DNA of 64,000 nucleotides, from contig DHEF01000053.1 in the NCBI GenBank assembly GCA_002399735.1, positions 24,828 to 88,827 on the forward strand. The letters run 5' to 3'. How positions within the stretch are numbered: position 1 is the stretch's first letter; every line of letters begins with the position of its first letter. This document shows, in pieces, positions 1,255 through 60,850 of this stretch. Origin of the DNA: Chitinophagaceae bacterium UBA4857. GTDB taxonomy: Bacteria > Bacteroidota > Bacteroidia > Chitinophagales > Chitinophagaceae. The notes beneath the pieces are model-generated. The model saw only the letters and a list, made by a program, of their open reading frames with translations. It did not search any database and was not told the origin of the DNA. A program made the translations under genes and the position numbers.

Positions 1255-1325
1255 TATTTTACCGGCTGCATAAACCTGATTGAGCTGATGTTGCGACGCT
1301 CCGTTCATCGTTCCGTTCGCTAATC
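1255..1325 (+). repeat. Dispersed repeat superfamily copy (variant core ttgcgacgctccgttc)
   Basis: ttttaccggc start; ttgcgacgctccgttc...ttccgttcgct at 1291-1321 matches 6574-6604 and 60718-60750. Confidence 0.75.
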
Positions 1326-1532
1326 AGCAGCGGGAAGTTGGAAAGTCCGGAAGTCAGAAAGACCGTAAGATTGAATTGACAATGAACAAGTGACAGTTGA
1401 TAGAATTCACCCGATCAACAATCAACGATGAACCGTTAGCTAAAGTGCCGACAAATAATATGCAGCACAAGTGTAAGTATTTAATTCATCTCCACTGGAA
1501 ATAAATTAAATCCCGATTCTATCGGAACACTA

Positions 1533-1572
1533 CGGACGATGCTAGTAGCACTGCAGTTAGAAAAAAAAATAA
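1533..1572 (-). repeat. Isolated left arm of the dispersed repeat, directly after the dprA stop
   Basis: Reverse complement aactgcagtgctactagcatcgtccg resembles aactgcattactactagcatcgtctg at 12329-12354. Confidence 0.65.
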
Positions 1573-2685
1573 CTATACCAGTTTGTACATTTTCCCCGGA
1601 AGTGGGAGTACAATATTTTGTAACTCCAGGCTTAACATAGCGGCTGCAATGTTGCTATTGCTTAGTGTGGAAAGTGCCGTTATTTCATCAATATGAATGG
1701 AGTTATGATTGTTTAATAAATCCACAATTTTTTTTTCATCGGCAGTAAGTTCCAGCATCAAGGGTTGTTGTATAGCATTGGCTTTTTGCTTTGTATTGTT
1801 CTTATTGCTTTTCCAACCTAATGAATATAAAATATCGTCGGCATGTTGTAAAAGTTTGGCACTGCCATTTTGTATAAGCATATTACAACCCTTGCTTTTT
1901 ATATCGGTTGTTTTGCCGGGTAAAGCAAATAATTGCTTTTTATATTGCATGGCAAGTTGGGCTGTAATCATGCTGCCGCCTCTTTCCGATGTTTCTATAA
2001 TTACAGTAGCATCACTAATGCCTGCCACTATACGGTTACGCCGCGGAAAGTTGTAACGTTCGGGTAAAGATGCACTCATAAACTCTGTTAACAAACCGCC
2101 ACCTGTTTTCAATATTTCTTTAGCCAATGCAGTGTGTTGTGTAGGATAAATTCTATCTAAGCCATGCGCCAACACACCAACGGTTGGTGCCTTGTGTGCA
2201 ATGGATGATCTATGGGCAATAGCATCTATACCGGCTGCCATGCCACTGATAATATGAATATTTTCACCGGCTAAATCTTTTACCAATTCCTCGGTAACGT
2301 CGCGGCCATATTGCGAGTGGGAACGGGAGCCAACAATAGCAATATTTTTTTGATGATTTAAATCTGCATCACCTTTATAATACAATACCGTTGGCGAGTC
2401 GTGAAACTTTAATAAACGCTGCGGATAATTTTCGTTGGTATAAAGTAGCGGCGTTATTTTATATTTTTCTATAAATTTTAATTCCTTTTCTATACGGGAA
2501 AAATCGGTGAATTGTTTTATGCTTTCGGCCCTTGCATCGCCAATACCTTCAATTTTTTCAATGATAGTTTTCTTGGCTTTAAAAATATCTTCTACGGCAA
2601 AATGTTGCAATAATAATTTTGCTTGCACAGGTCCAATTAAAGGAACCTGCAATAATGCAAGGTGGTAAAATAAAGGAGTAAGCAT
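1573..2685 (-). CDS. dprA: DNA-processing protein DprA (Smf)
   Basis: N-terminal SAM-like region, IAIVGSR, IISGMAAGID, GVLAHGLD, NFPRRNRIVAG, C-terminal winged helix. Confidence 0.95.
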   Translation of the reverse strand: MLTPLFYHLALLQVPLIGPVQAKLLLQHFAVEDIFKAKKTIIEKIEGIGDARAESIKQFTDFSRIEKELKFIEKYKITPLLYTNENYPQRLLKFHDSPTVLYYKGDADLNHQKNIAIVGSRSHSQYGRDVTEELVKDLAGENIHIISGMAAGIDAIAHRSSIAHKAPTVGVLAHGLDRIYPTQHTALAKEILKTGGGLLTEFMSASLPERYNFPRRNRIVAGISDATVIIETSERGGSMITAQLAMQYKKQLFALPGKTTDIKSKGCNMLIQNGSAKLLQHADDILYSLGWKSNKNNTKQKANAIQQPLMLELTADEKKIVDLLNNHNSIHIDEITALSTLSNSNIAAAMLSLELQNIVLPLPGKMYKLV

Positions 2686-2736
2686 TTGGTGTTTTTCGGT
2701 TACAATAAAAATAAGGAAATAAGTAAAATGCTGCGT

Positions 2737-4671
2737 TTACTTATTAGTTATTCTTATTTCTGTGCGTCGGTTTAATGCTCTTCCTTCTTCGGTTTTATTA
2801 TCTGCTACAGGTTTTGTTTCTCCATAACCAACAAAACTTAAACGTTTAGGTGATATAAATTTATGTTGCAGGTAGGCTACAACACGTTTAGCCCTGTTTT
2901 CAGATAAAAGTTTATTATCAGCAGGTTTACCAACATTATCTGTATGTCCCGATATTTCAATTGTGACCTCCGGGTTGTCATTTAAAAACTGTATCAGTTT
3001 ATCCAGTTCAATGTAAGAGGCAGGTTTAATATCAAACTTGTTTACATCAAAAAACACATTATTTAAAACAATACTGGCGTTAGGCTCTATAGGCTGCAAG
3101 GCAATGTCTTTTTGGTAGGTAGAATCGGCCTCTGTGCCAGCTACAAGAAACCTGTCCGAAAAAAATAAATAGCCTTTTTTGTTTACATTAAAAACATAAT
3201 CGTTACCAACGGGCAGCGTAATTAAATAATCGCCATCTTCATCCGTTCGTACAATATTAACTACCTGATTATTGGAAAGGTTTATTAGCTCAACTGTTGA
3301 TGCGATGCCTTCGTTCGTTTTTTTGTCGTGTACTTGTCCTGTAATCCATAACGTTTTTTTCGGTTGCACCTCTTTTGGCAGATCAAAGCTATATATATCT
3401 AAACCGCCTTTACCTTCCGGCCTTTCACCTGAATAGTAAGCCGTTGCACCATCGGCAGTTATATACAATGTTCCTTCTTTGTTTATTGTATTAATAGGAT
3501 AGCCCAGGTTAACGGGTGCAGTGGTGAAATTTCCGGCACTATCTTTTTTGGTAAAAAACAAATCATCATCGCCGTAACCTTGCCAGGTGTTAGAGGTAAA
3601 ATACAAAGTCTGGTTATCGGCATGAATAAAGGGGCATTGTTCATCACCGGCTGTGTTTACCTGCGGGCCTAAGTTTTCAGGCTCGCTCCAAAAGCCTTTT
3701 TCGTTTAAACGAGTTACATAAATATCCATACCGCCATAACCGCCGGGGCGGCTACTGGTAAAATAAATTTCTCTTTTATCAGGCGATAAACTTGGTTGTG
3801 AATCCCATTGGTCGCTATTTACTTTACGGCCCATGTTGCGTGCTGCTGACCATGCACCATTTTGCAAATAAGCCATATATAAATCACAACTACCTAATCC
3901 ATCCGGACGATTACAACCGGTAAAGACAAGCCATTTGCCATCCTGCGAAATTTGTAAAGCACCTTCGTTATAACTGGTATTTATTTCGCCGGCTAAAGCC
4001 TTAGCTGTGTTCCATTCGCCGTTAATAAAATTGCTGGAATAAAAATCTTCATTACTCTGGTTAATACGTCTGGTAAAAGCCAATTCTTTTTTATCAATAG
4101 TAAGCGAAGGAAAGTATTCAGATTCTTTTGTATTAATAGATGGTCCGGCATTTACAGGATTAAAACTGTATCGTCTGTCCTTTAAAAAAGTACTGTCATA
4201 TGCAACGGCAAATTCATAGTTTTTTTTGCGTTGTAAGTAGGCTGCTAATTGTTTTTCATTTTTGGGTGGCGTAACAGTAAGTACATGATTTAGTGCAGCC
4301 AATGCTTTTTTAAATTCTCCCACCGATGCCAGCATGGTAGAATAGAGTAGTTTATCGGGTATAGTGTAAATACTGTCTATAGCAAATGCAGTTTCAAAAC
4401 TTTCAATACTTTTATTGTAGGTGTTTAATTTGCTGTAAATACTGGCCATAGCAATATGTGCATCTACATAGTTGTTATCAATGGCAACTGCCTGAGTAAG
4501 TAAGCCAATGGCGCTTACATAGTTATTGTCATTAGCTCTTTCGATAGCTTGCTGATAAAGCGTCACTGCCTTTTTATTCACTTTAGCAGGATTATAATTT
4601 TGTCCGTTTACACTATAAGTAAAAAAACAAAATGTAATCAGGAGCCAATATTTGAAAAATATGTTGACCAT
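2737..4671 (-). CDS. OmpA-family protein with TPR, PD40 beta-propeller and carboxypeptidase-regulatory-like domains (PorE-like architecture)
   Basis: Signal peptide, TPR-like helices, repeated DSQPSLSPD/EQCPFIHAD PD40 units, C-terminal IEISGHTDNVG...LSENRA...NRRTE OmpA motif. Confidence 0.85.
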   Translation of the reverse strand: MVNIFFKYWLLITFCFFTYSVNGQNYNPAKVNKKAVTLYQQAIERANDNNYVSAIGLLTQAVAIDNNYVDAHIAMASIYSKLNTYNKSIESFETAFAIDSIYTIPDKLLYSTMLASVGEFKKALAALNHVLTVTPPKNEKQLAAYLQRKKNYEFAVAYDSTFLKDRRYSFNPVNAGPSINTKESEYFPSLTIDKKELAFTRRINQSNEDFYSSNFINGEWNTAKALAGEINTSYNEGALQISQDGKWLVFTGCNRPDGLGSCDLYMAYLQNGAWSAARNMGRKVNSDQWDSQPSLSPDKREIYFTSSRPGGYGGMDIYVTRLNEKGFWSEPENLGPQVNTAGDEQCPFIHADNQTLYFTSNTWQGYGDDDLFFTKKDSAGNFTTAPVNLGYPINTINKEGTLYITADGATAYYSGERPEGKGGLDIYSFDLPKEVQPKKTLWITGQVHDKKTNEGIASTVELINLSNNQVVNIVRTDEDGDYLITLPVGNDYVFNVNKKGYLFFSDRFLVAGTEADSTYQKDIALQPIEPNASIVLNNVFFDVNKFDIKPASYIELDKLIQFLNDNPEVTIEISGHTDNVGKPADNKLLSENRAKRVVAYLQHKFISPKRLSFVGYGETKPVADNKTEEGRALNRRTEIRITNK

Positions 4672-4850
4672 AATATAGTAACGAATCTAAATATTATTTA
4701 TTTTTAGGGTGCTAGATGTTCTTAAAATTATTGTTGTCCTCTACAACCAAGCCCTCTTTACCACATTTTATTAGTTAAACGTATGTGAATTTCAGGGTTA
4801 TCAATACAATTGTATTCAATTAATAAATATTTGTGTAAAATATTTAAAAT

Positions 4851-4890
4851 AAAAGAAAACCGCACCAAAATATTGATGCGGTTTTCTTTT
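4851..4890. terminator. Intrinsic terminator downstream of folD-queE
   Basis: aaaagaaaaccgca-N12-tgcggttttctttt, perfect 14-bp inverted repeat with A/T tails. Confidence 0.8.
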
Positions 4891-4904
4891 ATGTTCATTT
4901 TTTA

Positions 4905-5549
4905 TTATGGCACATTAATATATTTATGCAATTGCAGGCTAAGCTCCCATTGCGGGTTGGCCTTAACATACTCAACAATTAACGGAACCATTACATCAGC
5001 CTTACTCCATTCAGGTTGTAAGTATAATTTACAATCGGCAGGTACTTGTGCCGCAAACTGCTCGCCAAAAGCAAAATCCGATTTATGGTAAATAATTACT
5101 TTTAATTCGTTAGCCGCAGCCACCACCTCGGGTAAAGGAGCTTTAAACTTTTTTGGCGATAAACATAACCAATCCCAGTTTCCTGATAATGGCGATGATC
5201 CCGATGTTTCAATATTTGTTTGTAAACCTGCTGCATGTAGTGCATCGGTTAACGCATCCAATGGGTGCATCAATGGCTCACCACCGGTAATAACTACAAT
5301 TTTAGATGGTGTTGCTTTTACTTCATCCACCAATTGTTGTATGGTAAAGTGCGGGTGCGCATCGGCGTCCCAGCTTTCTTTTACATCGCACCAAACACAG
5401 CCCACATCACAGCCGCCCAAACGTATAAAGTAAGCAGCATGACCCTGATAAAACCCCTCACCCTGAATGGTATAAAAATGCTCCATTACCGGCAACGTAC
5501 TTGTAGCCGTTAAAAGGGGAGTATCTATATTTTCAGTAGTTGCTGTCAT
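4905..5549 (-). CDS. queE: 7-carboxy-7-deazaguanine synthase (radical SAM)
   Basis: FYTIQGEG, CxxxCxxC as CDVGCVWCD, VITGGEPL, IETSG, SLQLHKY. ATG at 5549 preferred over the upstream start in the track. Confidence 0.92.
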   Translation of the reverse strand: MTATTENIDTPLLTATSTLPVMEHFYTIQGEGFYQGHAAYFIRLGGCDVGCVWCDVKESWDADAHPHFTIQQLVDEVKATPSKIVVITGGEPLMHPLDALTDALHAAGLQTNIETSGSSPLSGNWDWLCLSPKKFKAPLPEVVAAANELKVIIYHKSDFAFGEQFAAQVPADCKLYLQPEWSKADVMVPLIVEYVKANPQWELSLQLHKYINVP

Positions 5550-5576
5550 ATTTTTCTTAAACAATCAAAAGCTTAT

Positions 5577-6452
5577 TTAGTTGTTTTCAACGCAAGCCTG
5601 ATAGGTATTTTTCATCAAAGCCGCAATGGTCATAGGGCCTACACCACCCGGTACAGGCGTTATCCAATCAGTTTTATCGGCAACTTCGGCATAAGCCACA
5701 TCGCCTTTTAGCCTAAAACCACTTTTACGGCTGCTGTCTTCCACTCTGGTAATGCCTACATCAATAATTATGGCACCTGGTTTTACCATGTCAGCAGTAA
5801 CAAACTCGGGTATGCCCAAAGCCGCTACAATTATATCGCCTTGCAGGCAAAGTTCTTTTAAGTTGGTAGTATGCGAGTGACAAATAGTTACCGTACAGTT
5901 TCCCGGGTTACTATTACCACTTAACAAAATACTCATAGGGCGTCCAACAATATTACTACGGCCAATAACAATAGCATGTTTTCCTTTTGTATCTATTTTG
6001 TAATGCTTTAACAGCAACATAATTCCGTATGGTGTTGCCGGAACAAAAGTTGGTAAGCCTTCTACCATTTTACCCACACTTTCAGGATGAAACCCGTCTA
6101 CGTCCTTCGCAGGCGATATAGCGTCAATTACCTTTTTAGCGTCAATATGTTTTGGTAATGGCAGTTGTACCAAAATACCATCAATATCCGGATCGTTGTT
6201 AAGGTTATCAATTTCTTCTAATAATTGCAGTTCATCTATAGTGCTTTCAAACCTAACTAAGGTCGATTTAAAGCCTGTTTCTTCGCATGATTTTACTTTT
6301 GCAGCTACATAAGTTTCGCTGGCTCCGTTGTTGCCTACTAAAATTGCGGCTAAATGCGGTATTTTTTTTCCTTCGTTTGCACGTTGGGCTACATCCAGTT
6401 TCAGTGCATCTTTAATAGCCTGAGCGGCTAATTTCCCGTCTAATATTTGCAT
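5577..6452 (-). CDS. folD: Bifunctional methylenetetrahydrofolate dehydrogenase/cyclohydrolase
   Basis: [40 protein letters not shown]. Confidence 0.97.
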
Positions 6453-6539
6453 GGCGCAAACCTACATAAACTTTCAATGTTTTTGGTTTTAAATCTGTAT
6501 TAACGGCTACATTTTCTCATTTTTATAGTAACATTTTTT

Positions 6540-6795
6540 GTTTACCGGCTTCGGTTCCCTGATTGATCGTCCCTTGCGACGCTCCGTTCGGAGTTCCGTT
6601 CGCTGTTCAGGAGAGAGAGTAGGGAAGTCGGGAAGTCGGAGAGTCCGTGAGTCGGGAAGTTCAGGGGCTTCTCCCTATTAACTATTAACAATGAACCATT
6701 AACTACCAACACCTCATGCCAAATGATGAATAGTATTACAGCAGTACAAGCGTGCGACGCAACGGAAGCTCAATCAAGGGAGGGACGCTGGGAGC
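6540..6795. repeat. Composite repeat: + strand variant copy, ggaagtc and ttaac 7-mer tracts, and a - strand full copy
   Basis: 6574-6604 matches 1291-1321. The reverse complement of 6741-6791 (ccagcgtccctcccttgattgagcttccgttgcgtcgcacgcttg) matches 19183-19227 and 25966-26010. The reverse complement of 6679-6705 is identical to 35221-35247. Confidence 0.85.
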
Positions 6796-6943
6796 AAAAT
6801 GCTCATGTCTAATATCAGAAAGAAAGCCTCTTAAGTGTTAACGCTCTATGTTACTTATAGCGCCTATCAAAAAACTTATTCCGCACATGATAATTGTATT
6901 CCAATAAAATACGTAAATTACGATAAGCTAACCTACCTGAGTT

Positions 6944-7771
6944 TTGAGAAACATTAAACTGCTTTTAATGGTTCTGCCATTTTGTGCAAGCCATAACCTG
7001 TATGCACAGTTGGTGCGTAAACCCGTAAGTTCATCTTATGCAGGTGTCGGGGCGTATTCCGCCACTCATTCCGATGTATTTTCTGTTTTGTCTAATACTG
7101 CTGCACTGACAAAAGTGAAACAGTTTAGTGCCGGTGTATATGGCGAACAGCGTTTTATGCTGAAGGAGCTTATGCATTATTTAGGTGCTTTTGCTTTGCC
7201 CACCCAATCGGGAAACTTTGCCGTAACAACTGCTTATCAGGGCGGTAGTTATATGAATGATTATCAGATAGGATTGGCTTATGCCCGAAGTCTGGGTAAA
7301 ACCATTGATATTGGTGTAAGGTTTAACTACAACGGATTAAAAGTAAATGGTTATGGCAATGCATCAGCAATTGGCATGGAGCTGGGTACTGTTTTACATT
7401 TTACCGAGAAGCTGCATGGCGGTTTACAAGTGGTAAACCCGGTAAGTTCAAAATTCGGGATAAATAAACAGGAAAAGTTTGCCTCTGTATATTCATTAGG
7501 TATAGGATACGAGGCGTCGGAGAAGTTTTTTGTAAGTACAGCCTTTGTAAAAGAAGAAGATAAGGCAAACATCGTACAGGCAGATGTACAATACAAAATT
7601 TTACCTTTTTTACAATTACGGGGTGGAGTAAGTACGGGTACAACCAGTTATTGGTTAGGAGTTGGTTTAGGTTGGAAAAATATACGATTAGATATTGTAA
7701 GCGGTTATCATAATCAGTTAGGGCTATCGCCGGGACTGATGATTATATATGAAAATAATCATCAGCCATGA
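6944..7771 (+). CDS. Hypothetical outer-membrane beta-barrel protein (FadL/PorV-like appearance)
   Basis: TTG start, signal peptide ending YAQ, alternating aromatic/Gly beta-strands (IGLAYAR, LGIGYE, LGVGLGW); overlaps the next gene by ATGA. Confidence 0.65.
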   Translation: MRNIKLLLMVLPFCASHNLYAQLVRKPVSSSYAGVGAYSATHSDVFSVLSNTAALTKVKQFSAGVYGEQRFMLKELMHYLGAFALPTQSGNFAVTTAYQGGSYMNDYQIGLAYARSLGKTIDIGVRFNYNGLKVNGYGNASAIGMELGTVLHFTEKLHGGLQVVNPVSSKFGINKQEKFASVYSLGIGYEASEKFFVSTAFVKEEDKANIVQADVQYKILPFLQLRGGVSTGTTSYWLGVGLGWKNIRLDIVSGYHNQLGLSPGLMIIYENNHQP

Positions 7772-9819
7772 AGAAATATGTTTATTATATATGTATACTA
7801 ATTTTATGTTGTCGGTTTCAATTGGCTGCACAAACGGTACCGCCTGTAACCGAGCAACAGTTAGAAAGTATGACTGCTGCTGAAGAAGCCGAAACAGAAG
7901 ATGATAGTTATTTACAACAATTAAGTTATTACAAAAGACATCCCTTACATATAAATACCGCATCGGCAGATGAGCTTCAGGGATTATTGTTGCTGACCGA
8001 TTTGCAAATACAAAACCTGCTTATTTATCGTAAGTTATTGGGTAAGCTGGTAAATGTGTATGAGTTGCAGGCGGTACCGGGCTGGGATATTTTTACTATA
8101 CGAAAACTATTGCCTTTTATAACTATTGCTGATGATATAAGTTTAATAAACTCAATAAAAGACCGGTTGAAAGGTGGTGAACATAGTATTATTATACGGG
8201 CGTCGCAAATAATGGAGCAAGCCAAAGGGTTTGATAAAACTACAGCCGGCACAAAATACCTGGGAAGTAAACAACGTTACTTTTTGCGGTACAGGTATAT
8301 GTATAAAAATATACTACAGTACGGTGTGACAGCCGATAAAGATGCTGGTGAACAATTTTTTAAAGGAGTACAGCAATATGGTTTTGATTTTTATTCTGTA
8401 CATGCATTTGCACGCAACATAGGTGTGATAAAAGCGTTGGCACTTGGTGATTTTACTGTAAATATGGGCCAGGGTTTAATACAATGGCAAAGCCTTGCTT
8501 TTAAAAAGAGTGTAGAAATAAGTGCTATAAAAAGACAATCAACGGTTTTAAGGCCATATACTTCGGCCGGTGAATATAATTTTAACCGTGGAGTTGGTAT
8601 TACACTGCAAAAGAAAAATATTGAACTTACTTTGTTTGCATCCGCTAGAAGGCTAAGTGCTAATATGATACAAAGCGCTGATAGTGTAGATGCGGAAGAT
8701 TATTTTTCTTCTTTTGTTACTTCGGGTTATCACAGAACTGCATCGGAAGCAGCTGATAAAAATAAACTTAGGCAAATAAGTTATGGAGGGAATTTGAGAT
8801 ACTCTTTGGGTAAAGGGTACATAGGTATAAATACAATAAGCTATCATTTTTCAGCAGCTTTACAAAAGCGGGATTTACCCTATAATTATTTTGCTATAAC
8901 AGGAAAAACATGGTTTAATGCCAGCATTGATTATGGCTACACACATAAAAACGTTCACTTTTTTGGTGAAGCGGCTATTGATAAAAAAATGAACAGGGCT
9001 TTTGTAAACGGCCTTATGATAAGTGTTGACAGAACAGTAGACATTGCTTTGTTGCAAAGAAGTATAGGTAAGGGTTATCAGGCTGTAAACGGTAATGCAT
9101 TTACAGAAAATACTTTCCCTACAAATGAAACCGGTTATTACATTGGGTTAACCATGAGGCCAACGAGTAATTTACGATTAGATGGGTATGCCGATTTATT
9201 TAAATTTCCTTTTATAAAATACCTGGTAGATGCACCAGCCAGTGGAAGCGAATATGCCGCCCAGTTAACTTATACTCCAAATAAAGCAAGTGAATTGTAT
9301 CTGCGTTTTAGAAAAGAGTCAAAACAACTTAATCAACCGGATAATGTAACCAGTTTAAATTATCTGGTTTATCAAAATAAGGTCAACTGGCGTATGCATG
9401 TAAGCCATAAATTAAATACAATCATTACGGTGCGCAGCAGGGTAGAATGGTTACAGTTTGACCGGGAAAGGAATGATAAAGAACAAGGTATACTATATTT
9501 TGCCGATATAATATATAAACCGATGACGAAACCTTTAGCTGCCGGGGTAAGGTTACAGTATTTTGAAACAGATAGTTATTATTCAAGGGTTTATGCTTTT
9601 GAAAACGATGTATTGTATAGTTATAGTATTCCAGTGTTTTATGATAAAGGTTTTCGTTATTATTTAAATCTTAATTATGATATAAACAGAAATATTACGG
9701 TATGGCTTCGTTGGGCACAGATGATTTATAATAACAGGCAAACGATAGGTAGTGGGTTGGATGAGATAAATGGGAATAAAAAGTCGGAGATAAAGGCGCA
9801 GATAAGAATGATTATATAA
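7768..9819 (+). CDS. Helix-hairpin-helix (ComEA-like) domain protein with a large predicted C-terminal beta-barrel
   Basis: Signal peptide; HPLHINTASADELQGL...YRKLLGKLVNVYELQAVPGWD is a ComEA/HHH_3-type segment; the rest is rich in amphipathic aromatic strands and ends EIKAQIRMII. Confidence 0.75.
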   Translation: MKKYVYYICILILCCRFQLAAQTVPPVTEQQLESMTAAEEAETEDDSYLQQLSYYKRHPLHINTASADELQGLLLLTDLQIQNLLIYRKLLGKLVNVYELQAVPGWDIFTIRKLLPFITIADDISLINSIKDRLKGGEHSIIIRASQIMEQAKGFDKTTAGTKYLGSKQRYFLRYRYMYKNILQYGVTADKDAGEQFFKGVQQYGFDFYSVHAFARNIGVIKALALGDFTVNMGQGLIQWQSLAFKKSVEISAIKRQSTVLRPYTSAGEYNFNRGVGITLQKKNIELTLFASARRLSANMIQSADSVDAEDYFSSFVTSGYHRTASEAADKNKLRQISYGGNLRYSLGKGYIGINTISYHFSAALQKRDLPYNYFAITGKTWFNASIDYGYTHKNVHFFGEAAIDKKMNRAFVNGLMISVDRTVDIALLQRSIGKGYQAVNGNAFTENTFPTNETGYYIGLTMRPTSNLRLDGYADLFKFPFIKYLVDAPASGSEYAAQLTYTPNKASELYLRFRKESKQLNQPDNVTSLNYLVYQNKVNWRMHVSHKLNTIITVRSRVEWLQFDRERNDKEQGILYFADIIYKPMTKPLAAGVRLQYFETDSYYSRVYAFENDVLYSYSIPVFYDKGFRYYLNLNYDINRNITVWLRWAQMIYNNRQTIGSGLDEINGNKKSEIKAQIRMII

Positions 9820-9882
9820 TCAATTGTGAAGCAAATGCTTACTAACTTCCCTTTTCCCTACCTTCGCTATAAATCAACTCAC

Positions 9883-10194
9883 ATGACGGATCAGCAACAG
9901 CCTAACCAGTTAAACATAGAAATATCAGAAGAAGTAGCAGAAGGTAACTACGCCAATCTGGCCATTATTACACATTCGCATGCCGAGTTTGTGGTAGACT
10001 TTGTAAACGTAATGCCGGGTACGCCAAAGAGCAAGGTAAAATCGCGTATTATACTTACACCGCAGCATGCCAAACGTTTAATGAAGGCACTGATAGACAA
10101 TGTAGAAAAATTTGAAGCAAGTAACGGCGTAATTAAAGATCTGGACGAAGTACAGATTCCTTTAAACTTTGGTGGTCCTAATGCCCAGGCTTAA
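9883..10194 (+). CDS. DUF3467 family protein
   Basis: LNIEISEEVAEGNYANLAIITHSHAEFVVDFV...KSRIILTPQHAKRL. ATG at 9883 follows a TACCTTCG -7-like motif. Confidence 0.85.
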   Translation: MTDQQQPNQLNIEISEEVAEGNYANLAIITHSHAEFVVDFVNVMPGTPKSKVKSRIILTPQHAKRLMKALIDNVEKFEASNGVIKDLDEVQIPLNFGGPNAQA

Positions 10195-10887
10195 TTACAT
10201 TAAACCTTGCTCTACAAAACTATAGTAGCCTGTTTCACTAACAATAATGTGATCCAGTACTTTTATATCCAGGTAACCTGCAGCCTCGTACAATTTGTTA
10301 GTTAAACGTTTATCTGCTTCGCTGGGGTTAAGGTTGCCAGAGGGATGGTTATGGCTAATAATAATATTAACGGCATTGTGTTCCAAAGCCTTTTTTAATA
10401 TAATCTTCGGGTCGGCTACAGTACCTGTAACACCTCCTTCGCTGACAATTTCAAAGTGATTTATTTTATTAGCCTGGTTTAAGTACATAACTGCAAAAAC
10501 CTCATGCTTAAAATCGCCAAGTTTTAGCTGCAGCCATTTGGCACAATCACTAGTACTGGTAATGAAAGGTTTAGCCAGCAATTCTGCAGCTTGCCGTCGT
10601 TTTCCTAACTCCAATGCGGCCACCAATAATACCGCCTTGGCTTCGCCAATTCCTTTTATTTTAGTAAGGTCTTTAACGGTAAGTTTTGCTAACTCTTGCA
10701 AATTATCTTTTCCCAGGCGTAGTATTTCCTGCGCTACATCCAGCGCCGATTTATTACGGGGTCCATTACGTATCAAAATGGCCAAAAGCTCAGAGTTGCT
10801 TAATCCTTTGGCTCCGGACAATAGTAGTTTTTCTCGGGGCCTATCGTCTTTTGCCCATTGTTTTATCGGGTACTTTTGCTCTTGCAT
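10195..10887 (-). CDS. radC: RadC/JAB-domain protein
   Basis: DRPREKL, LSNSELLAILIR, IKGIGEAKA, HNHPSG...SEAD, VLDHII. Confidence 0.95.
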   Translation of the reverse strand: MQEQKYPIKQWAKDDRPREKLLLSGAKGLSNSELLAILIRNGPRNKSALDVAQEILRLGKDNLQELAKLTVKDLTKIKGIGEAKAVLLVAALELGKRRQAAELLAKPFITSTSDCAKWLQLKLGDFKHEVFAVMYLNQANKINHFEIVSEGGVTGTVADPKIILKKALEHNAVNIIISHNHPSGNLNPSEADKRLTNKLYEAAGYLDIKVLDHIIVSETGYYSFVEQGLM

Positions 10888-10978
10888 GATATCAATTTAA
10901 CAAATAATTTTATCCCGTTAATTAATTACAAAAAAGTTATATGTGATTAATTAGCGGAAAACCATAAAATCTAATATC

Positions 10979-11209
10979 ATGAAGCCTAGTAACCTGACTA
11001 CCGTAGGTGCATTGCATCCCATTCTTTTCTTTGCAACCGTTTACATTGTTGCTTTACTTCTTTCTGTGTTTATCTGCACATCCATATTTAAAAGTTTAAA
11101 TAGTAGTACTGCCAGCCAATACAATAAAGAGTCACAACCTGCTACAGTAGCCGTTTCTACGAAAAGTATACCCAATACCACAATTGGCGCAGTAGTAGCT
11201 TTGCGTTAA
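10979..11209 (+). CDS. Small single-TM hypothetical membrane protein
   Basis: 76 aa with one hydrophobic segment (ILFFATVYIVALLLSVFIC); fills the gap before prs in the same orientation. Confidence 0.55.
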   Translation: MKPSNLTTVGALHPILFFATVYIVALLLSVFICTSIFKSLNSSTASQYNKESQPATVAVSTKSIPNTTIGAVVALR

Positions 11210-11285
11210 TTATTTTCAGTTTTTATAGCTAGTTGTCTGGGTTCATTGGCCCTATATTTATATCTTCGCCACTCATTCCACAACC

Positions 11286-12236
11286 ATGCAATCAGCTAAA
11301 ATATTCTCAGGTACAGGTTCACAGGACTTATCAGCAGAAATCTGTAAACGGTACGGAACACAACCCGGACGTATTAATGTTCAAAAGTTTAGTGATGGTG
11401 AAATTTCACCCAACTTTTTGGAAAGTGTTCGTGGCGATTACGTTTTTTTAGTACAAAGTACTTTTGCCCCTTCCGAAAATTTTATGGAATTACTGTTAAT
11501 GATTGATGCAGCCCGCAGAGCATCAGCCTATAAAGTAATTGCCGTTATTCCCTATTATGGCTATGCCCGCCAGGATCGTAAGGATCGTCCCCGTGTTGCC
11601 ATTGGCAGTAAACTTGTAGCCAATATGTTAACCGCAGCCGGTGCTGATAGGGTGATAACCATGGATTTACATGCTCCGCAAATTCAGGGTTACTTCGATA
11701 TTCCCGTTGACCACCTTGACAGCCACGCTGTTTTTATTCCCTATATTGAAAATTTACGCTTAGAAAACCTTACCTTTGCCGCCCCCGACGTAGGAGCAAC
11801 CAACCGTATACGCGAAATTGCCAACTATTTTGGGGCCGAAATGGTTATTTGCGACAAACATCGCAAACGTGCCAACGAGATAGCGAGCATGGTGGTAATT
11901 GGTGATGTTACCGGTAAAGACATTGTTATTATAGATGACATTTGTGATACCGGCGGAACACTTGCAAAAAGTGCAGCTCTTTTAAAAGAAAAAGGTGCCC
12001 GTAGCGTTAGGGCCATGATTACCCATCCGGTATTGAGTGGCAAAGCCTACGAAAACATCGAAAACAGTGTGCTGGAAGAGCTAATTGTATGCGATACTAT
12101 TCCTATCCGCAAACAAAGCGAAAAAATAAAAGTAATCTCAGTAGCCGAATTATTTGCTGTAGCCATACGCAATGCGTTCGAAAACAAAAGTATTACCAGT
12201 TTATTTGTTCACTCGCAACGCCGCACTAGCCTGTAA
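11286..12236 (+). CDS. prs: Ribose-phosphate pyrophosphokinase
   Basis: KFSDGE, PYYGYARQDRK, MDLHAPQIQG, IIDDICDTGGT. Confidence 0.97.
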   Translation: MQSAKIFSGTGSQDLSAEICKRYGTQPGRINVQKFSDGEISPNFLESVRGDYVFLVQSTFAPSENFMELLLMIDAARRASAYKVIAVIPYYGYARQDRKDRPRVAIGSKLVANMLTAAGADRVITMDLHAPQIQGYFDIPVDHLDSHAVFIPYIENLRLENLTFAAPDVGATNRIREIANYFGAEMVICDKHRKRANEIASMVVIGDVTGKDIVIIDDICDTGGTLAKSAALLKEKGARSVRAMITHPVLSGKAYENIENSVLEELIVCDTIPIRKQSEKIKVISVAELFAVAIRNAFENKSITSLFVHSQRRTSL

Positions 12237-12321
12237 GGGTGTAGGGTAGTAAGGTTGGGGTTTAAGGTTTACGTGTTTTATTCTGTATACTAGTATACTG
12301 AATATTAATGACTAATAATTA

Positions 12322-12400
12322 TTTTACCAACTGCATTACTACTAGCATCGTCTGTTGCGTCGCACTCTTGTACTGTAGTAATTCTATTGAACATTGTGCA
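12322..12400 (+). repeat. Dispersed repeat superfamily copy
   Basis: 12322-12374 is 50/53 identical to the reverse complement of 35290-35343; the right arm gtaattctattgaacattgtgca matches 19236-19258. Confidence 0.9.
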
Positions 12401-12521
12401 GGTAACGGAATAATAGGATAAACTAAAAAAGCAGGTTATTAAAATGGCAGTTAACCAATAACTGTTAGCTAATAACCGCTTTAAAAAACAGAGAATTTTT
12501 TATTCATATAAACAAACAAAA

Positions 12522-13100
12522 ATGAGAACAATTACAATCGAAGGGAACTTGAGGACCGATTTTGGCAAGTCAGCCACCCGCCAAATTCGCTCTCAGGGTC
12601 ATGTGCCTGGTGTAATTTACGGGGGTGCTCAGGAAATTAGTTTTTATGCTCCTGCTGCGGCTTTCAAACACTTTGTGTACACACCAAGCTTTCAAATTGC
12701 TGAAGTTAAATTAGATGGTAAAACTTACCGTACTATCTTAAAAGACTTACAATTTGATAAAGTAACCGACGCTTTAACACATATTGATTTGTTAGAGTTA
12801 GTGGAAGATAAAAAAGTTATTGCAACTATTCCTTTGAAATTTACAGGTACATCTGTAGGTGTAAAAGAAGGTGGTCGCTTTGTAGCTAAATTTAAATCAC
12901 TTAAAGTGAAAACTTTACCGAAGGATTTAAAAGAGCAAATTGAAGTGCCTATTGACACTTTAAAAATTAACGAAAACATTCGTGTAGAAGATGTGAAAGA
13001 ACCAAATTTTGAAATTTTGAATTCTCCACGTATTCCTATTGCATCAGTAGTTATGACTCGTCAGCTTAAACAAGAAGAAGCTGCTGCTGCTAAAAAATAA
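12522..13100 (+). CDS. rplY: 50S ribosomal protein L25/Ctc
   Basis: GHVPGVIYG, KDLQFDKV...HIDLLEL, IPLKFTGTSVGVKEGG; canonical prs-rplY-pth order. Confidence 0.95.
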   Translation: MRTITIEGNLRTDFGKSATRQIRSQGHVPGVIYGGAQEISFYAPAAAFKHFVYTPSFQIAEVKLDGKTYRTILKDLQFDKVTDALTHIDLLELVEDKKVIATIPLKFTGTSVGVKEGGRFVAKFKSLKVKTLPKDLKEQIEVPIDTLKINENIRVEDVKEPNFEILNSPRIPIASVVMTRQLKQEEAAAAKK

Positions 13101-13121
13101 TCAACGTAACTTGATTGATAT

Positions 13122-13155
13122 AAAAAGTACCTGCAAACATGCAGGTATTTTTTTT
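13122..13155 (+). terminator. Intrinsic terminator after rplY
   Basis: aaaaagtacctgc-aaacat-gcaggtattttttt. Confidence 0.8.
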
Positions 13156-13190
13156 AGGCGTAAGCTGTTGCTAAAAGTTATAAAGATGAT

Positions 13191-13315: not shown

Positions 13316-13356
13316 TTTGTTTTATTGTTACATATATTGATAATTATTTTTGTGTT

Positions 13357-13944: not shown

Positions 13945-14072
13945 ATTACTTATTTTAGCGTCCCCGTCCAACCAAAATCCAGTTGATACATGATTGCCTT
14001 ATTGGGATAATACCTGAGTAGCACAGCTATCATGGTATACATCTTTATATTTAATCATCAACAACCTCTAAA

Positions 14073-14684: not shown

Positions 14685-14710
14685 GTATTGCCAGTTAATT
14701 GTTATAACAC

Positions 14711-19127: not shown

Positions 19128-19169
19128 AAACCGTACAACTAAATATACATTTATTTGGTTGTACGGTTT
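19128..19169 (+). terminator. Intrinsic terminator after purS
   Basis: aaaccgtacaactaaata-N6-tatttggttgtacggttt, 18-bp stem with one G-U pair. Confidence 0.75.
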
Positions 19170-19180
19170 ATTTATTTGGT

Positions 19181-19260
19181 TACCAGCGTCCCTCCCTTGA
19201 TTGGGCTTCGGTTGTGTCACTCACTTGTACGTTCGGTAATTCTATTGAGCATTGTGCAAA
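19181..19260 (+). repeat. Dispersed repeat superfamily copy (TTGTGTCACTCACTTG core)
   Basis: Left arm taccagcgtccctcccttgattgggctt matches 25964-25991; core plus right arm match the reverse complement of 55845-55895. Confidence 0.9.
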
Positions 19261-19335
19261 AGCAAGCTTGTAATTCAAAGTAGTTTTAGCTTAACAAAAG
19301 CAAACGTTTTGAAACCTATAAAATTTCGGAGTCTT

Positions 19336-25904: not shown

Positions 25905-26017
25905 TCAACCCTAAATCCCTAAAGGGACTTTAAAGCCTAGGTTGGCATAATGTTTTTTTATGTTACCGGCGTCCCTCCCTTGATTGGGCTTTTGTTGCGT
26001 CGCACTCTTCAACTGCA
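25905..26017 (+). repeat. Short REP-like hairpin (ccctaaatccctaaagggactt) followed by a dispersed repeat copy
   Basis: 25963-26017 ttaccggcgtccctcccttgattgggcttttgttgcgtcgcactcttcaactgcag matches 19181-19227 and 34034-34056. Confidence 0.85.
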
Positions 26018-26073
26018 GGAATACGGATGAGCAATGGGCTGGTGTACAATAGAAAAGATAAAACATAATTTTC

Positions 26074-33946: not shown

Positions 33947-34004
33947 GCTGCAAATATCGTGTATTGATAAGATTGAAGCCGTTGTAAATGCGAATGTTAT
34001 TTAT

Positions 34005-34117
34005 GTTATCAGCTGCAGTACTACGATCATCCCTTGCGTCGCACTCTTCAACTGCAACAACGCGGAGCATCAATGAGGCTAATCCAATAACTAATATCGA
34101 ATTAATTCTATTGAGCA
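34005..34117 (+). repeat. Long dispersed repeat copy (about 113 nt)
   Basis: Aligns end to end with the reverse complement of 44970-45085; shared ctgcaacaacgc..agc.tcaatgaggctaat.caataactaat.tcgaattaattctattgagca. Confidence 0.9.
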
Positions 34118-35220: not shown

Positions 35221-35490
35221 TAGTTAATGGTTCATTGTTAATAGTTAGTAATAAGCATTAAGCTTTTAGCTGTTGATTAGTGAACAGAAAGCACAAGAGT
35301 GCGACGCAACAGACGATGATAGTAGTAATGCAGTTGGCAAAATAAAAAAGTATATAGTATTAAGTATTTAGTTTTGAGAAAGAAATTTTGTTGTATCACG
35401 ATAACATTGAACCTCTGGAACTTCTTGAACATTGAACCTTTGAAACTTTTTACCACGATAACGTTGAACTTTGGAACGTTGAACTTTAAA
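35221..35490. repeat. Composite repeat between PTPS2 and folE: 7-mer tract, - strand repeat copy (35290-35343), ttgaac tract
   Basis: Matches 6679-6705 (reverse complement), 12322-12374 (reverse complement), and the ttgaac tracts at 24641-24676, 45135-45188 and 46623-46654. Confidence 0.85.
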
Positions 35491-44969: not shown

Positions 44970-45085
44970 TGCTCAATAGAATTAATTCGACATTAGTTAT
45001 TGTATTAGCCTCATTGAGGCTTTGCGTTGTTGCAGCACAAGTGAGTGACACAACAGACGATGATAGTAGTAATGCAGCTGATAAC
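44970..45085 (-). repeat. Long dispersed repeat copy
   Basis: Reverse complement aligns with 34005-34117; carries the TTGTGTCACTCACTTG core. Confidence 0.9.
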
Positions 45086-45259
45086 AAAAGAAAGTATTTA
45101 GTATGTAGAAAGGGGCGCCTACATGATTACTATAACCTTGAACTTTTGAACATTGAACTGCTGGAACTTCTTAAACCTTTGGAACTTAATAATCTTACAT
45201 AAAAAAGTACGCAACACTACAGTGCTGCGTACTTAAAACTTATTACTTATAACTTACTA

Positions 45260-54893: not shown

Positions 54894-55634
54894 ATGCAGG
54901 CATTTTTTTTAACAGGTTTAACCATCGGCATTATAGGTAGTTTTCACTGCGTTGGCATGTGTGGCCCTTTGGCTTTGTCGTTGCCTGTAAATAAAGCCGG
55001 TAGCGGGTTTAAACAAATTGCGGCTATTATGGCTTACAACCTTGGCCGTGTAACTACCTATTTTAGTTTGGGTGTATTGTTTGGTGCCATTGGTAAATCA
55101 TTCGCCTTGGTTGGTTTCCAACAAGCCCTATCTATTGCTACCGGTGTTATATTGTTATTGGTTTTATTGTTGGGTAATAAATTGCAAACAAAAATTCCCA
55201 TTGTTGCAAGGTTTCATCAGTGGATAAAGCAAACACTTTTTGCGCTGCTAAAAAAACCACAGAACACCGGCGTATTTTTCTTAACCGGTGTTATTAATGG
55301 CTTATTGCCTTGCGGTTTAGTGTACCTGGCTATTGCGTCGGCCGTAACCACCGGTAGTGCGTTAAATGGAGGCATTGTAATGGCCGCATTTGGCTTGGGT
55401 ACCATTCCCTTAATGGCCATACTAATGGTAATGGGCACATTTATCTCTCTTACCTTTCGCTCAAAAGTTAAGCGTGTAATTCCTTATTTTGTTGGTCTGG
55501 TTGCCTGTGTTTTAATATTGCGTGGTCTTAATTTAGGCATACCTTATGTTAGCCCTGTAATGCCAGGCACTACTAAGGTTGATGTAATTAGCTGTCATCC
55601 TGATAGCATCATTATAAGCACTATCCGACATTAA
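54894..55634 (+). CDS. DsbD_2 / TauE-SafE-like membrane protein of cbb3 clusters
   Basis: GSFHCVGMCGP, YNLGR, LLPCGLVY, FGLGTIP. Confidence 0.88.
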   Translation: MQAFFLTGLTIGIIGSFHCVGMCGPLALSLPVNKAGSGFKQIAAIMAYNLGRVTTYFSLGVLFGAIGKSFALVGFQQALSIATGVILLLVLLLGNKLQTKIPIVARFHQWIKQTLFALLKKPQNTGVFFLTGVINGLLPCGLVYLAIASAVTTGSALNGGIVMAAFGLGTIPLMAILMVMGTFISLTFRSKVKRVIPYFVGLVACVLILRGLNLGIPYVSPVMPGTTKVDVISCHPDSIIISTIRH

Positions 55635-55639
55635 TTTTT

Positions 55640-56158
55640 TTGTGTTACCAGCTTCAGTAATACTAATCATAGTCCCTTGCGTCGCACTCTTCAACAGTAT
55701 TAATTCTAATCATCATCTTGTTATGCGAAGAGTAGCACAGAGTTTTTTCACAGAGGTACACAGAGGAGAACAGGATTTTGTTAAATGTACTAAAACGATT
55801 ACGAGCTTACTGTTGAATGATAAGATAGGAACAATTGTTTTGCTATTGCACATTGCTGAATAGAATTACCGAAAGCACAAGTGAGTGACACAACAAAAAA
55901 CAATTAAACAATTAGTTAATTTGAAAATTTGGAAATGAGGGTTTCCAATAGAATAGGAAACTCACTTAAAGCCCAATAGAATTACTGAACGTTGAAGAGT
56001 GCGACGCAAGGAACGATGACAGTAGTAATGCCGCTGACAAAACAAAAAAGTAAAAAATAAAAACGCTACATTCAACTTGTATAAGCTGTGTTTAACAGGA
56101 ATACAAAGCCCCTCCTTCGGAGGTTCACGTTAGGGAAGTAACGAAGTTAGGGGGAGGC
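55640..56158. repeat. Cluster of three dispersed repeat copies, a cacagag tract and a cccctcc...ggagg hairpin between convergent operons
   Basis: Cores at 55677-55692 (+), 55878-55893 (-) and 55994-56009 (-); ctaatcatcatc.tgttatgc...cacagag at 55696-55765 is shared with 60744-60804. Confidence 0.88.
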
Positions 56159-58321: not shown

Positions 58322-60538
58322 TTACAAATTGTTATTAATAGCATCCTGAGTACGGTTAACACCCCAGCTTAAAAAGCAACCGATAAAAAAGAAACGCTGT
58401 GCCGGCGGATTAATAGCTTGTTTAAATGTACCATCATGGTTATAATTATAGCCAAACACTTGTTTTGAGTTTAATACATTGGTTACACTGGCCATAATAA
58501 CTAAAAAAGTTTTTGCTTTGGCGTTACCTGCTTGTGGTACATAATTTACACTAAAGCCAAGGTTATTGTAAGGTATAGTTTTGCCGTTGTCCTTAATCTC
58601 AAATTTATTACCCGTGTTTTGCATAAAGTAATAAGGACGGCCGGTAGCAAACGTGTAAGTGAAATTAAAGCCCGTTTTCCATTTCATGACAAACTTTTTA
58701 GTAACTAAGTTGGCTGTGTGGTTGGAGGCAAAATTAGGTTGTAATTTTTGCGGGTAATATAAAAAATCACGTTTGGTGTCAAGGTATGAGTAGCTAATCC
58801 AATAGTCTAATTCTTTAATTGTTTTTTTATCACGCCAGAAAACTTCAAAACCCTGGGCGTAACCGGTACCATCGGTATTAATGGCCGGAAAAGTTTTAAC
58901 CAAAGCATTGTATTTTTTGTAAAATGCTTCTACCCTAAAAATTTGCAGATCGGTCATACGTTGCCAGTTAACAATATAGTGGGTAGCTTTTGTGTAATTA
59001 ATATCGCGGGTAAATTGTAAAATATCGTTTTCCGGTTTTTGGTAAAACATACCGTAAGCAAAACTCATTTGCGATGCTTTACCTGTTTTATAAGCCATAG
59101 ATAAACGTGGGGCAATATTTGCTTTTTGTATAATGGACGAGTATTCAAATCTTGCACCCAATTTAAGTGCTAAATCATTAGTAGCATGTATATCCGTTTC
59201 GGCAAAAACACTGGTCAACTGATCTTTTAAAGAAAAATCAAAAGCATTGTATTTTATGCGGGTATCATTATACCAATGTTCTGTACCAAAACGTAACATA
59301 TTTATGCCCACCATTCTTTTTTCAAAAACTACTTTCACTTGCGAAAATTGCTCCAGTCTGTTTAAGGCAAAGTTGGTGGTATCAATATAATTAATGCCGG
59401 TAGTGGTTGGTTTGTTATCAGCATCTAACACTTGCAAATCAATTAAATCTTTATTGGTACTGTAAGTAGCACCCAATTGCATTTTCCAACCATTTTTTAA
59501 TGTTTCCCGCCAGCTAAGGTTATTATACCAGTTGGTATTGTTTACATCAAAAGCATTTTTAATGGTAGCGTTGTTTATGTTAGGGCGTCTTAATCCCATT
59601 TTACCTGCCGAAAAAGTGGTGTAATATTTTACCATGCCCTTTTTTGTTTTAAAACGGGCATTGGCGTCGGCATTGTAAAAAGCAGGTTTTTTAAAATAGT
59701 CAGGCTTTTGTTTTACAATAGCAAAATAGGCCGATAAATCTGTGTAACCCGCATTAATACCAATTGACGATTTTTTTGTTTTATCAACATGCTGAAAACC
59801 GGCACCCAAAAACACTGAAGAAATAGAGGCACTTGCTTCCGATCTGTTTGGGATGTCAATACTCTCCAGAATAAGTGCCGATGATAAAGCCTGACCATAC
59901 AATGCTGAGTAACCACCGGTGCTAAAAACAGTTCCTTTAAATAAGTTGGGCGAAAATCTTCCTCTTGATGCAATGTCCGGTACGCTGGTACCAAAGGGAT
60001 TGTTCACCAACATACCATCAATAAATTGTTTGGTTTCGTAACCCGCACCACCGCGTACAAACAAACCCTCCTGTTCGCCAACCTGTTGTGCACCGGGTAA
60101 GGTTTTTGCAGCCGATGTAATATCTGCATTGGCGCCACCAACCGTTAATACATCTAAAGTGGTTAAAACTGTAGCTGCTCTTTTTCTGTCACTGGCTTCA
60201 AACGATCCGGCAGTAATGGTTACAGCCGATAGCTCCGTTACTTCTTCTTTTAATGTAAAATTTATATTGATGTCTTCAGCAGCGAGTGTAATATTTTGTT
60301 CGGCAGTTTTATAACCCACATTTCTGGCTTCCAGTATAAAATTTCCTTTCTCGGTAGTGGTAAAACTAAATTTGCCCGATGAGTCGGTAATGCCGCCATC
60401 GTAGGTGTCTTTTACCGTAATGCTGGCACCAATTATTGGTTTGCCTTTTGCCGCTACAGTACCGGTTATTTTAACCTGCGCCTGCACAACAGCACAAAGG
60501 CATAAAATACTAAAACAGAAGGTAAACAGTGATTTCAT
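58322..60538 (-). CDS. TonB-dependent receptor with N-terminal carboxypeptidase-regulatory-like domain
   Basis: Signal peptide, ITGTV...GASI...DGGITDSSGKF, plug LFVRGG...FIDG, GGYSALYGQALS, barrel LGARFEYS and FRVEAFYK. Confidence 0.92.
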   Translation of the reverse strand: MKSLFTFCFSILCLCAVVQAQVKITGTVAAKGKPIIGASITVKDTYDGGITDSSGKFSFTTTEKGNFILEARNVGYKTAEQNITLAAEDININFTLKEEVTELSAVTITAGSFEASDRKRAATVLTTLDVLTVGGANADITSAAKTLPGAQQVGEQEGLFVRGGAGYETKQFIDGMLVNNPFGTSVPDIASRGRFSPNLFKGTVFSTGGYSALYGQALSSALILESIDIPNRSEASASISSVFLGAGFQHVDKTKKSSIGINAGYTDLSAYFAIVKQKPDYFKKPAFYNADANARFKTKKGMVKYYTTFSAGKMGLRRPNINNATIKNAFDVNNTNWYNNLSWRETLKNGWKMQLGATYSTNKDLIDLQVLDADNKPTTTGINYIDTTNFALNRLEQFSQVKVVFEKRMVGINMLRFGTEHWYNDTRIKYNAFDFSLKDQLTSVFAETDIHATNDLALKLGARFEYSSIIQKANIAPRLSMAYKTGKASQMSFAYGMFYQKPENDILQFTRDINYTKATHYIVNWQRMTDLQIFRVEAFYKKYNALVKTFPAINTDGTGYAQGFEVFWRDKKTIKELDYWISYSYLDTKRDFLYYPQKLQPNFASNHTANLVTKKFVMKWKTGFNFTYTFATGRPYYFMQNTGNKFEIKDNGKTIPYNNLGFSVNYVPQAGNAKAKTFLVIMASVTNVLNSKQVFGYNYNHDGTFKQAINPPAQRFFFIGCFLSWGVNRTQDAINNNL

Positions 60539-60554
60539 TTGACTAAATATAAAT

Positions 60555-60586
60555 CAAATGTAAACTGGTTTATATTATAAACCAAA
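60555..60586 (-). promoter_or_regulatory. Promoter of the TBDR operon overlapped by a perfect palindromic operator
   Basis: Minus strand TTTG-N20-TACATTTG; TGGTTTATA-T-TATAAACCA at 60566-60584. Confidence 0.72.
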
Positions 60587-60639
60587 TTTTATTCTAGGAC
60601 CAATTTCTGTTTGTAGAGCTAATAAAAGCGGGTTTATTT

Positions 60640-60850
60640 TTGTTAATCAGCTGCAGAAATACTATTGATCGTCCCTTGCTTTTTAACCCCGAGTTGGCCT
60701 TGTGCGTTTGATTCGGGGCGACGCTCCGTTCGACAGCATCTCGCTAATCATCATCGTGTTATGCAAGTTGTACCACAGAGTTGCCAGGAGTTTTTTTCAC
60801 AGAGTGACACAAAGTTTTTCTCCGTGCCCCTCTGTGAAAAGCCTCTGTGT
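60640..60850. repeat. Composite repeat: left arm, variant core, nested cacagag/ctctgtg inverted repeat
   Basis: gatcgtcccttgc shared with 6566-6578; gcgacgctccgttc; TTTTCACAGAG (60794-60804) / CTCTGTGAAAA (60830-60840). Confidence 0.82.

Follow-up and report, generated by a model that had tools for sequence, protein, structure and literature searches.

The DNA analysed here (the window) is a stretch of 64,000 nt from contig DHEF01000053.1 of Chitinophagaceae bacterium UBA4857, and belongs to a genome (G000) of 4.8 Mb with 37.9% G+C. It carries 13 copies of an 85–90-base repeat whose family is apparently previously undescribed; full-text literature searches found no description of it. On balance we favour, with moderate confidence, the interpretation that these copies form a lineage-restricted family of selfish, non-autonomous repeats resembling the repetitive extragenic palindromes (REP) and bacterial interspersed mosaic elements (BIME), with a hairpin-less polar architecture and a cassette-like exchange of parts. 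The family plays the genomic role of REP/BIME, BOX or MITEs (miniature inverted-repeat transposable elements), and it is built differently. Copies are gained and lost between species, and copies exchange arms and cores like cassettes, orthologous sites included. Short interspersed repeats make up a major part of bacterial genomes and are poorly understood; in this case about 1,000 copies in one genome, and hundreds in other genera, occur without the features that explain the movement of known families (hairpin, inverted ends, target duplication).

The 13 cores of the window were all recovered within 1-2 nt of the positions given by the initial annotation, far above chance. Core A (TTGCGTCGCACTCTT) was found seven times with one mismatch at most, at 6748-6762 (minus strand), 12355, 25995, 34034, 35295 (minus), 55677 and 55995 (minus); with 3 mismatches allowed, shuffled sequences averaged 1.07 matches, and none of 100 shuffles reached 9. 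Core B (TTGTGTCACTCACTT) is located at 19212, 45039 (minus) and 55879 (minus), that is, three matches against 0.06 expected. The core GCGACGCTCCGTTC, at 1293, 6576 and 60718 (three against 0.02 expected), had been taken for a variant; the three sites are present, and the sequence is a complete third core class (C) with some 200 copies genome-wide. Allowing one mismatch, the classes A, B and C count 375, 167 and 197 copies in the genome, where the core 11-mers are the most frequent of all non-homopolymer 11-mers. A profile was built from 300 copies and the genome was searched with nhmmer, which returned 979 matches totalling 86.6 kb (1.8% of the DNA) on both strands. The intergenic location first proposed holds for 951 of the 979 (97%), which lie outside open reading frames (ORFs) of at least 100 aa. 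In the window, 14 profile matches correspond to 13 copies, one of them being split in two. The near-identical pair already noticed at 12322-12374 and 35290-35343 was confirmed as 56 nt, 95% complementary, between 12319-12374 and 35290-35345.

The dyad of the core is formed by 3+1+3 positions. Positions 3 and 7 are C-G in 591 copies, T-A in 170 and another combination in 9, and to this extent the paired C>T and G>A change described in the initial annotation as preserving the dyad is real. Within the genome, the change is mostly a subfamily marker, because classes A and B are separated by two further linked changes. Class C differs from the others in its tail and by a T-to-A change in the centre of the dyad. 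A hybrid core, TTGTGTCACACTCTT, which joins the dyad of B to the tail of A, was found in two other genera and lends modest independent support to a paired constraint on the dyad. An RNA hairpin cannot be formed from a stem of 3 bp with a loop of 1 nt, and therefore a DNA site is the natural reading of the core, which is invariant across genera.

The copies share one polarity and one layout: a T-rich run of 3-18 nt, a left arm of 31-32 nt, the 15-nt core and a right arm of ~33 nt, giving a length of ~87 nt (85-90). In the core-anchored consensus gTTAcCaGC leads into the left arm and the right arm closes with ...AATTCTATTsrGCAttnTGCAA, after which conservation ends; the anchored consensus of the left side is ttttTTTTTtgtTAcC. 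The left end recognised earlier, a T run followed by TT(A/G)(C/T)C(A/G)GC, was corroborated at this scale, since the exact motif TT(A/G)(C/T)C(A/G)(G/A)C is located 31 or 32 nt 5' of the core in 349 of 788 copies, with a left arm of 32 nt in 224 copies and of 31 nt in 125. Both arms are modules of the same type in direct orientation, and arm sequence types such as ACTACTA, CCCTGAT and AACACAGAT can be seen on either side of the core. The combinatorial joining of cores and arms was borne out: all 15 cells of core by left arm are occupied, as are 21 of the 24 of core by right arm, and the association is moderate (Cramer's V 0.35-0.37 between core and arms, 0.21 between left and right arm). Terminal inverted repeats were not found; the left end (T run plus GTTACCAGC) and the reverse-complemented right end (TTGCACAATG) share only TTG.

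The copies of the window were compared with the syntenic regions of two congeners, G002 and G003, of which G002 is the sister species also used for the genome-scale comparison of spacers. The copies and the module nested in one of them are the following.

1245..1339, plus strand: full copy of class C (core 1291-1305), nhmmer profile score 65.2 plus core match, between two minus-strand genes.
6528..6615, plus strand: full copy of class C (core 6574-6588), core match plus profile, absent from G002 and G003.
6707..6800, minus strand: full copy of class A (core 6748-6762, one mismatch) that faces the copy at 6528, not present in G002 or G003.
12311..12404, plus strand: full copy of class A (core 12355-12369), core match plus profile.
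19163..19279, plus strand: full copy of class B (core 19212-19226), same site filled in G002 and G003.
25951..26049, plus strand: full copy of class A (core 25995-26009), not present in G002 or G003.
33991..34117, plus strand: long-form copy of class A (core 34034-34048), its right arm extended, not present in G002 or G003.
35269..35350, minus strand: copy of class A (core 35295-35309), present in G002 and not in G003.
44970..45094, minus strand: long-form copy of class B (core 45039-45053), 83% complementary to 34019-34117.
55631..55725, plus strand: full copy of class A (core 55677-55691), core match plus profile.
55835..55898, minus strand: partial copy with T run, core of class B (55879-55893) and right arm, without left arm, core match plus profile.
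55949..56049, minus strand: full copy of class A (core 55995-56009), core match plus profile.
60624..60768, plus strand: one copy of class C in two parts, given by two adjoining profile matches (hmm 6-61 and 56-106).
60679..60718, plus strand: T-led hairpin module of 40 nt (CTTTTTAA-CCCCGAG...TTCGGGG), nested in the preceding copy where TTG and CG of its core would meet.

The split copy at 60.6 kb and the missing left arm at 55879 had not been recognised in the initial annotation. Five spacers of the window, holding eight copies (6574/6748, 12355, 25995, 34034 and 55677-55995), are empty in both congeners, while site 19212 is filled in all three species and 35295 in G002 only. The spacer of the copy at 12311 measures 285 nt here versus 31-53 nt, element-free, in four of four congeners. 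In the copy at 55631 the T run comes directly 3' of the TAA stop of a DsbD_2-family gene (54894-55634), which stops at the same codon in G002 and G003, and these have neither element nor T run there.

At the scale of the genome, the comparison of orthologous spacers covered 862 kb of G002 and 89 spacers holding a copy here. No core was present in G002 in 63 of them (71%), so the outcome that had been named as an argument for a regulatory site, copies fixed everywhere at orthologous positions, was not what we found. The other 26 have a core, and in about 11 of these the two copies resemble each other more than unrelated copies of one class do. The core class differs in 9 of the 26 shared spacers. 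In the alignments at such sites the position is the same and the arms or flanks are conserved, and the paired cores are A/C, B/C or B/A; therefore the core class has been replaced in place, as a cassette. One filled/empty pair could be read to the base, in a repeat of another family with and without a nested element. The filled copy reads ...TATAC / TTTTTTGGTTGCC...CATCGTAACAA / TGCGTAGC... and the empty copy ...TATAC / TGCGTAGC..., so that the insert has 87 nt (TTTTTT...GTAACAA), includes the T run and made no target duplication; this is a single case, and a relaxed search for further nested empty sites still gave one clean case. Three further genera of the family carry core A 342-492 times. 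Two congeners have 109 and 54 copies of it, two more have 0 and 1, and there were none in the 24 other families of the order that were sampled. The turnover, the clean nested insertion and the switching of core class all fit the non-autonomous, REP-like family with shuffled modules that the initial annotation had put forward.

A second unit lies inside the element at fixed places. The 40-nt sequence TTT(T/C)TAA-CCCCGAG...TTCGGGG gave 40 pattern matches in the genome, of which about 38 are this hairpin module. In 12 cases it lies in the core, at TTG^CG(T/A)CGC, in cores of classes A and C; in ~18 it is placed between TG and CAGTAC, at the end of the right arm, and in ~6 it separates GTTACCGG from CTGCAG at the left end. 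The bond is G^C at each of the three sites, and the module starts with a T-rich stretch, like the main element. In the split copy of the window, the left part (60624-60678) ends in TTG and the right part (60719-60768) begins with CGACGCTCCGTT. The fixed sites and the T-led start suggest one enzyme system that would cut at defined bonds, that of the core included.

Considering these observations, we propose that a trans-acting protein, present in the carrier lineages only, would recognise the core and probably cut at or near TTG^CG; it would both drive copying and keep the core uniform. That the core is a protein site or a cleavage signal instead of an RNA hairpin, as first suggested, fits the fixed bond used by the module, the absence of arm pairing and the lack of an Rfam match (see below). 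The abundance of sense copies after stop codons and terminator hairpins would reflect where insertions are made or tolerated, and at such sites the T run of the element could act as the U-tract of a terminator. A more specific version is put forward only tentatively: the core may be the recognition and cleavage site of a Chitinophagaceae-restricted DNA enzyme, which would be neither RAYT nor Y2 nor a reverse transcriptase (RT), and which would carry out a duplication-free, T-led copy-paste of small modules together with the exchange of core and arm cassettes. If true, this would be a new way to move and homogenise bacterial repeats, with the fixed TTG^CG bond and the in-situ switching among three core classes as its footprints. 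To our knowledge, the enzyme that spreads most bacterial short-repeat families other than REP/RAYT is unknown.

The placement of the copies relative to genes looks non-random. Between tandem genes there are 285 sense and 187 antisense copies. The T run of 89 sense copies begins 0-8 nt past the stop codon of the gene upstream, and no such peak exists for the other end of the element or for the other orientation; among the stop-abutting copies the share of TAG is about double that in the genome and TGA is rare, although the numbers are small. Of the more distant sense copies, 33% have a strong hairpin just 5' of the T run, compared with 6% in shuffles and 6% of the copies beside gene starts. The hairpin at 19128-19169 is the best terminator-like site in 1-20000 and adjoins the copy at 19163, whose T run doubles as its U-tract. 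The element supplies the T run and no preceding hairpin, and the 89 stop-abutting copies leave no room for one. The bases before the T run are A/T-rich yet variable, and a fixed flanking target was not found.

Taking into account this placement, the main rival interpretation is a host function at gene ends: the element would be a cis element selected by the host, either a polar 3'-end module (a U-tract or gene-end mark) or a site for a nucleoid or transcription protein, and mobility would be only its mode of spread. We regard this as possible but rather unlikely. It would account for the sense bias, for a stop-codon peak restricted to one end and one orientation, for the excess of upstream hairpins and for the terminator-like hairpin abutting the 19163 copy; also for the 19212 copy, kept in three species although the flanking spacer is not alignable, for the invariance of the core across genera and for the retention of copies in tightly packed viral contigs. 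However, 40% of the copies between tandem genes are antisense and many are next to gene starts; with 71% of the sites empty in the sister species and two congeners without copies, no gene depends on the element. The lack of an own hairpin and the change of core class at orthologous sites do not favour it either. A Rho loading site was likewise considered and rejected, as the base composition is just mildly C over G (0.23 versus 0.18).

The interpretation as selfish, non-autonomous repeats has its own difficulties. A mobilising protein was not found, and the genes for Y1, Y2 and RT do not follow the repeat. The absence of target duplication comes from the single base-exact filled/empty pair. 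The apparently non-random placement (stop-abutting copies, upstream hairpins, sense bias) is not required of selfish DNA, and the seemingly true orthologous copies at ~11 of the 89 sites, after ~20% divergence, could mean selection for a host function. Besides, it is the middle and not the ends that is most conserved, which is unusual for a transposon.

With regard to the mobiliser, the earlier statement that the window has no such gene was upheld, since its genes are housekeeping genes only. A parent insertion sequence (IS) was not detected either, and the genome has no IS in multiple copies: self-megablast of the genome gave a handful of repeats of at least 400 bp, none of them bounded by the element, though a draft assembly could hide a collapsed IS. 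The initial annotation had compared the TTAC of the left boundary with the target of IS608 and had pointed to Y1 (HUH) transposases. An element of the IS200/IS605 type or driven by RAYT, in which a Y1 HUH transposase would cleave single-stranded DNA beside TTAC, could explain the insertion without target duplication in the exact case; the core contains CGTC, and a strong Y1_Tnp match is present in the six of six genomes with at least 54 copies of core A, the two repeat-free congeners having weak matches only. We consider it improbable nonetheless. The TTAC is inside the insert, behind a T run that also belongs to the insert, and the element lacks subterminal hairpins. The three Y1_Tnp genes of this genome (contigs C15, C21 and C44) and one of G002 are flanked by their own classical hairpin REPs and not by this element. 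Strong Y1 matches also occur in seven genomes with no copy or one, and the best orthologue of the own Y1 gene is missing from the carrier G019, is only 38% identical in G002 and exists outside the family; at family level, the Y1 profile and the repeat agree in part only. The tie to replication is weak, with a leading-strand bias of 394 to 329, below that of genes. On the flanks and distribution of the Y1 genes, the link to RAYT/IS608 was rejected.

It was also possible to see some particularities of these Y1 loci. RAYT-like genes at 386041-386382 of G002 (contig C3) and at 82774-83118 of C21 in this genome have inverted hairpin REPs (GGGCTTTAGCCC; TATAGCCCACGGTTTAAACCGTGGGCTATAG), and the one in C21 carries an in-frame TAG. 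The gene of G002 lies between the orthologues of window positions 20160 and 21048, a locus occupied here by two ORFs without Pfam match (20185-20928 and 20933-21514).

Other enzymes were rejected on distribution. Reverse transcriptase does not track the repeat, with no RVT_1 match in the carriers G003, G006 and G019, and the same result discards a retroposed element with an A tail, in which the T run would be the poly(A) of the other strand. A Y2 rolling-circle transposase is absent from this genome. The congeners with many copies and those with none provide a natural contrast that should let the responsible protein be found.

A structured RNA, be it a small RNA, a leader or an element of the 3' untranslated region, is very unlikely. 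Single copies do fold, with modest energies, and the family has a clear polarity; but the folds are inconsistent with each other, and the duplex energy of a copy's own arms is equal to that of permuted pairs. No copy matched Rfam at the gathering score or at E up to 1. The mutual information lies within the arms only and reflects subfamilies, indels of 1 nt are common (arms of 31 and 32), and the ~980 copies occur in both orientations relative to genes.

The least credible alternative is that the forward strand encodes small hydrophobic peptides or lipoprotein signal peptides: this strand is open and hydrophobic in one frame (FFVTSCITTIIVCCVALLYCSNS), and the core is found inside real-looking lipoprotein signal peptides of ORFs of 193 and 184 aa (viral L173, L211 and L166), but 1-nt length variants frequently break the frame (the 224 versus 125 copies above), there is no 3-nt periodicity in the distance to upstream stops, the three core classes encode unrelated residues in every frame, and no copy of this genome gives a credible N-terminus. 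Sense-strand coding was therefore discarded, the ORFs over copies being spurious N-terminal extensions with the real starts downstream; coding on the antisense strand (VQECDATDDDSSNA...) was also discarded, as its frames and stops are inconsistent.

The signal peptides just mentioned come from viral contigs. The exact core was found in 60 stretches of IMG/VR, some of which are probably chance matches, and several viral contigs have, within short spacers, three to six full copies of either orientation; the collections of cultured phages and plasmids gave no match. The copies in viral contigs are a possible route between genera. In L173, L211, L170 and L166, lipoprotein-like ORFs (MNHSIKTLLIFSCVALLCACNS...) have a signal peptide made of sequence alignable to the core and right arm, a case in which a repeat may have been recruited as signal peptide. 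In L173 (from 7268, plus strand), L211 (from 710, plus) and L166 (minus) this sequence encodes both signal peptide and lipobox, and the mature parts of the 193-aa and 184-aa products are unrelated.

Regarding its consequences for the genome and its annotation, the repeat enlarges and reshapes the spacers beside housekeeping genes, it breaks assemblies (several copies adjoin runs of N), and it can mislead gene callers into N-terminal extensions.

Smaller units were also observed in the spacers. A lone unit similar to the left arm is located at ~25885-25910, just upstream of the copy at 25951, and arm-like units without canonical core are present at 29238-29268 and at 1513-1583 (minus strand), the latter having an A run on the plus strand, hence being a T-led unit of the minus strand. 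A module GTTTCC..GGAAACCCTCATTTCCAAATTTTCAAA is often found 3' of the right arm genome-wide, and at 55900-55960 it links two copies. Another, CCCCTCCTTCGGAGG..GGGAAGTAACGAAGTTAGGGGGAGG, occurs at the ends of convergent genes at 56075-56130 of the window, ~21440-21480 of contig C6 and ~188760-188810 of contig C15. Degenerate arrays of words of 7-8 nt (TTAACNA, TTGAAC.., GGRAGTCN; GAATGAT in G003) occupy spacers at 6620-6710, 24645-24673, 35217-35262, 35400-35490, 45134-45179 and 46620-46644, and also in G003; they are often nearly without one base, and the sequence at the same site differs between species. Upstream of the minus-strand gene 24681-25799, a stretch of ~33 nt (GCTAAGTACTTAACTTGCCGCCGATTTGCAGC, window 25800-25880) is near-identical in three species and the remainder of that spacer is not. 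A weak match to the RNA Flavo-1 at 46404-46490 (minus strand) is below threshold, with 30.7 bits where the gathering score is 42. Among named relatives, a Niabella species has the protein closest to the fused CcoNO of this genome, with 83% identity, which puts the genome within or close to the Chitinophagaceae.

By comparison with known systems, REP, REPIN and BIME of Enterobacteria and Pseudomonas are among the closest: they too are short, intergenic and present in hundreds of copies of both orientations, many of them at the 3' ends of genes, and they are likewise non-autonomous and patchy across relatives. The mosaics with other small modules recall BIMEs. Unlike REP and REPIN, the element lacks a hairpin of 20-40 nt (its dyad is 3+1+3 only), its arms are direct and not inverted, and its centre is what is conserved. 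Moreover, no RAYT gene is flanked by the element and no Y1 gene tracks its distribution, and the Y1 genes of the genome are accompanied by classical hairpin REPs distinct from the element. MITEs such as Correia of Neisseria and RUP of pneumococcus are equally small, of high copy number, gained or lost between close species and nested in other repeats; in contrast with them, the element lacks terminal inverted repeats, made no target duplication in the one exact case and shares its ends with no parent IS, in a genome almost without multi-copy DNA above 400 bp. Elements derived from IS200/IS605 share the insertion without target duplication and the strand polarity, and they differ in their subterminal hairpins, in a TTAC that is flanking instead of internal and in the strength of the replication-strand bias, which is weak here. 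As for BOX of Streptococcus pneumoniae (boxA-boxB-boxC), its end modules allow it to fold into a long stem-loop, whereas in the present element the arms do not pair and the centre, not the ends, is invariant. Although sequence and host phylum are unrelated, BOX is likewise a modular intergenic repeat (~100-200 nt) with interchangeable boxes, without a transposase of its own and with an unknown mobiliser.

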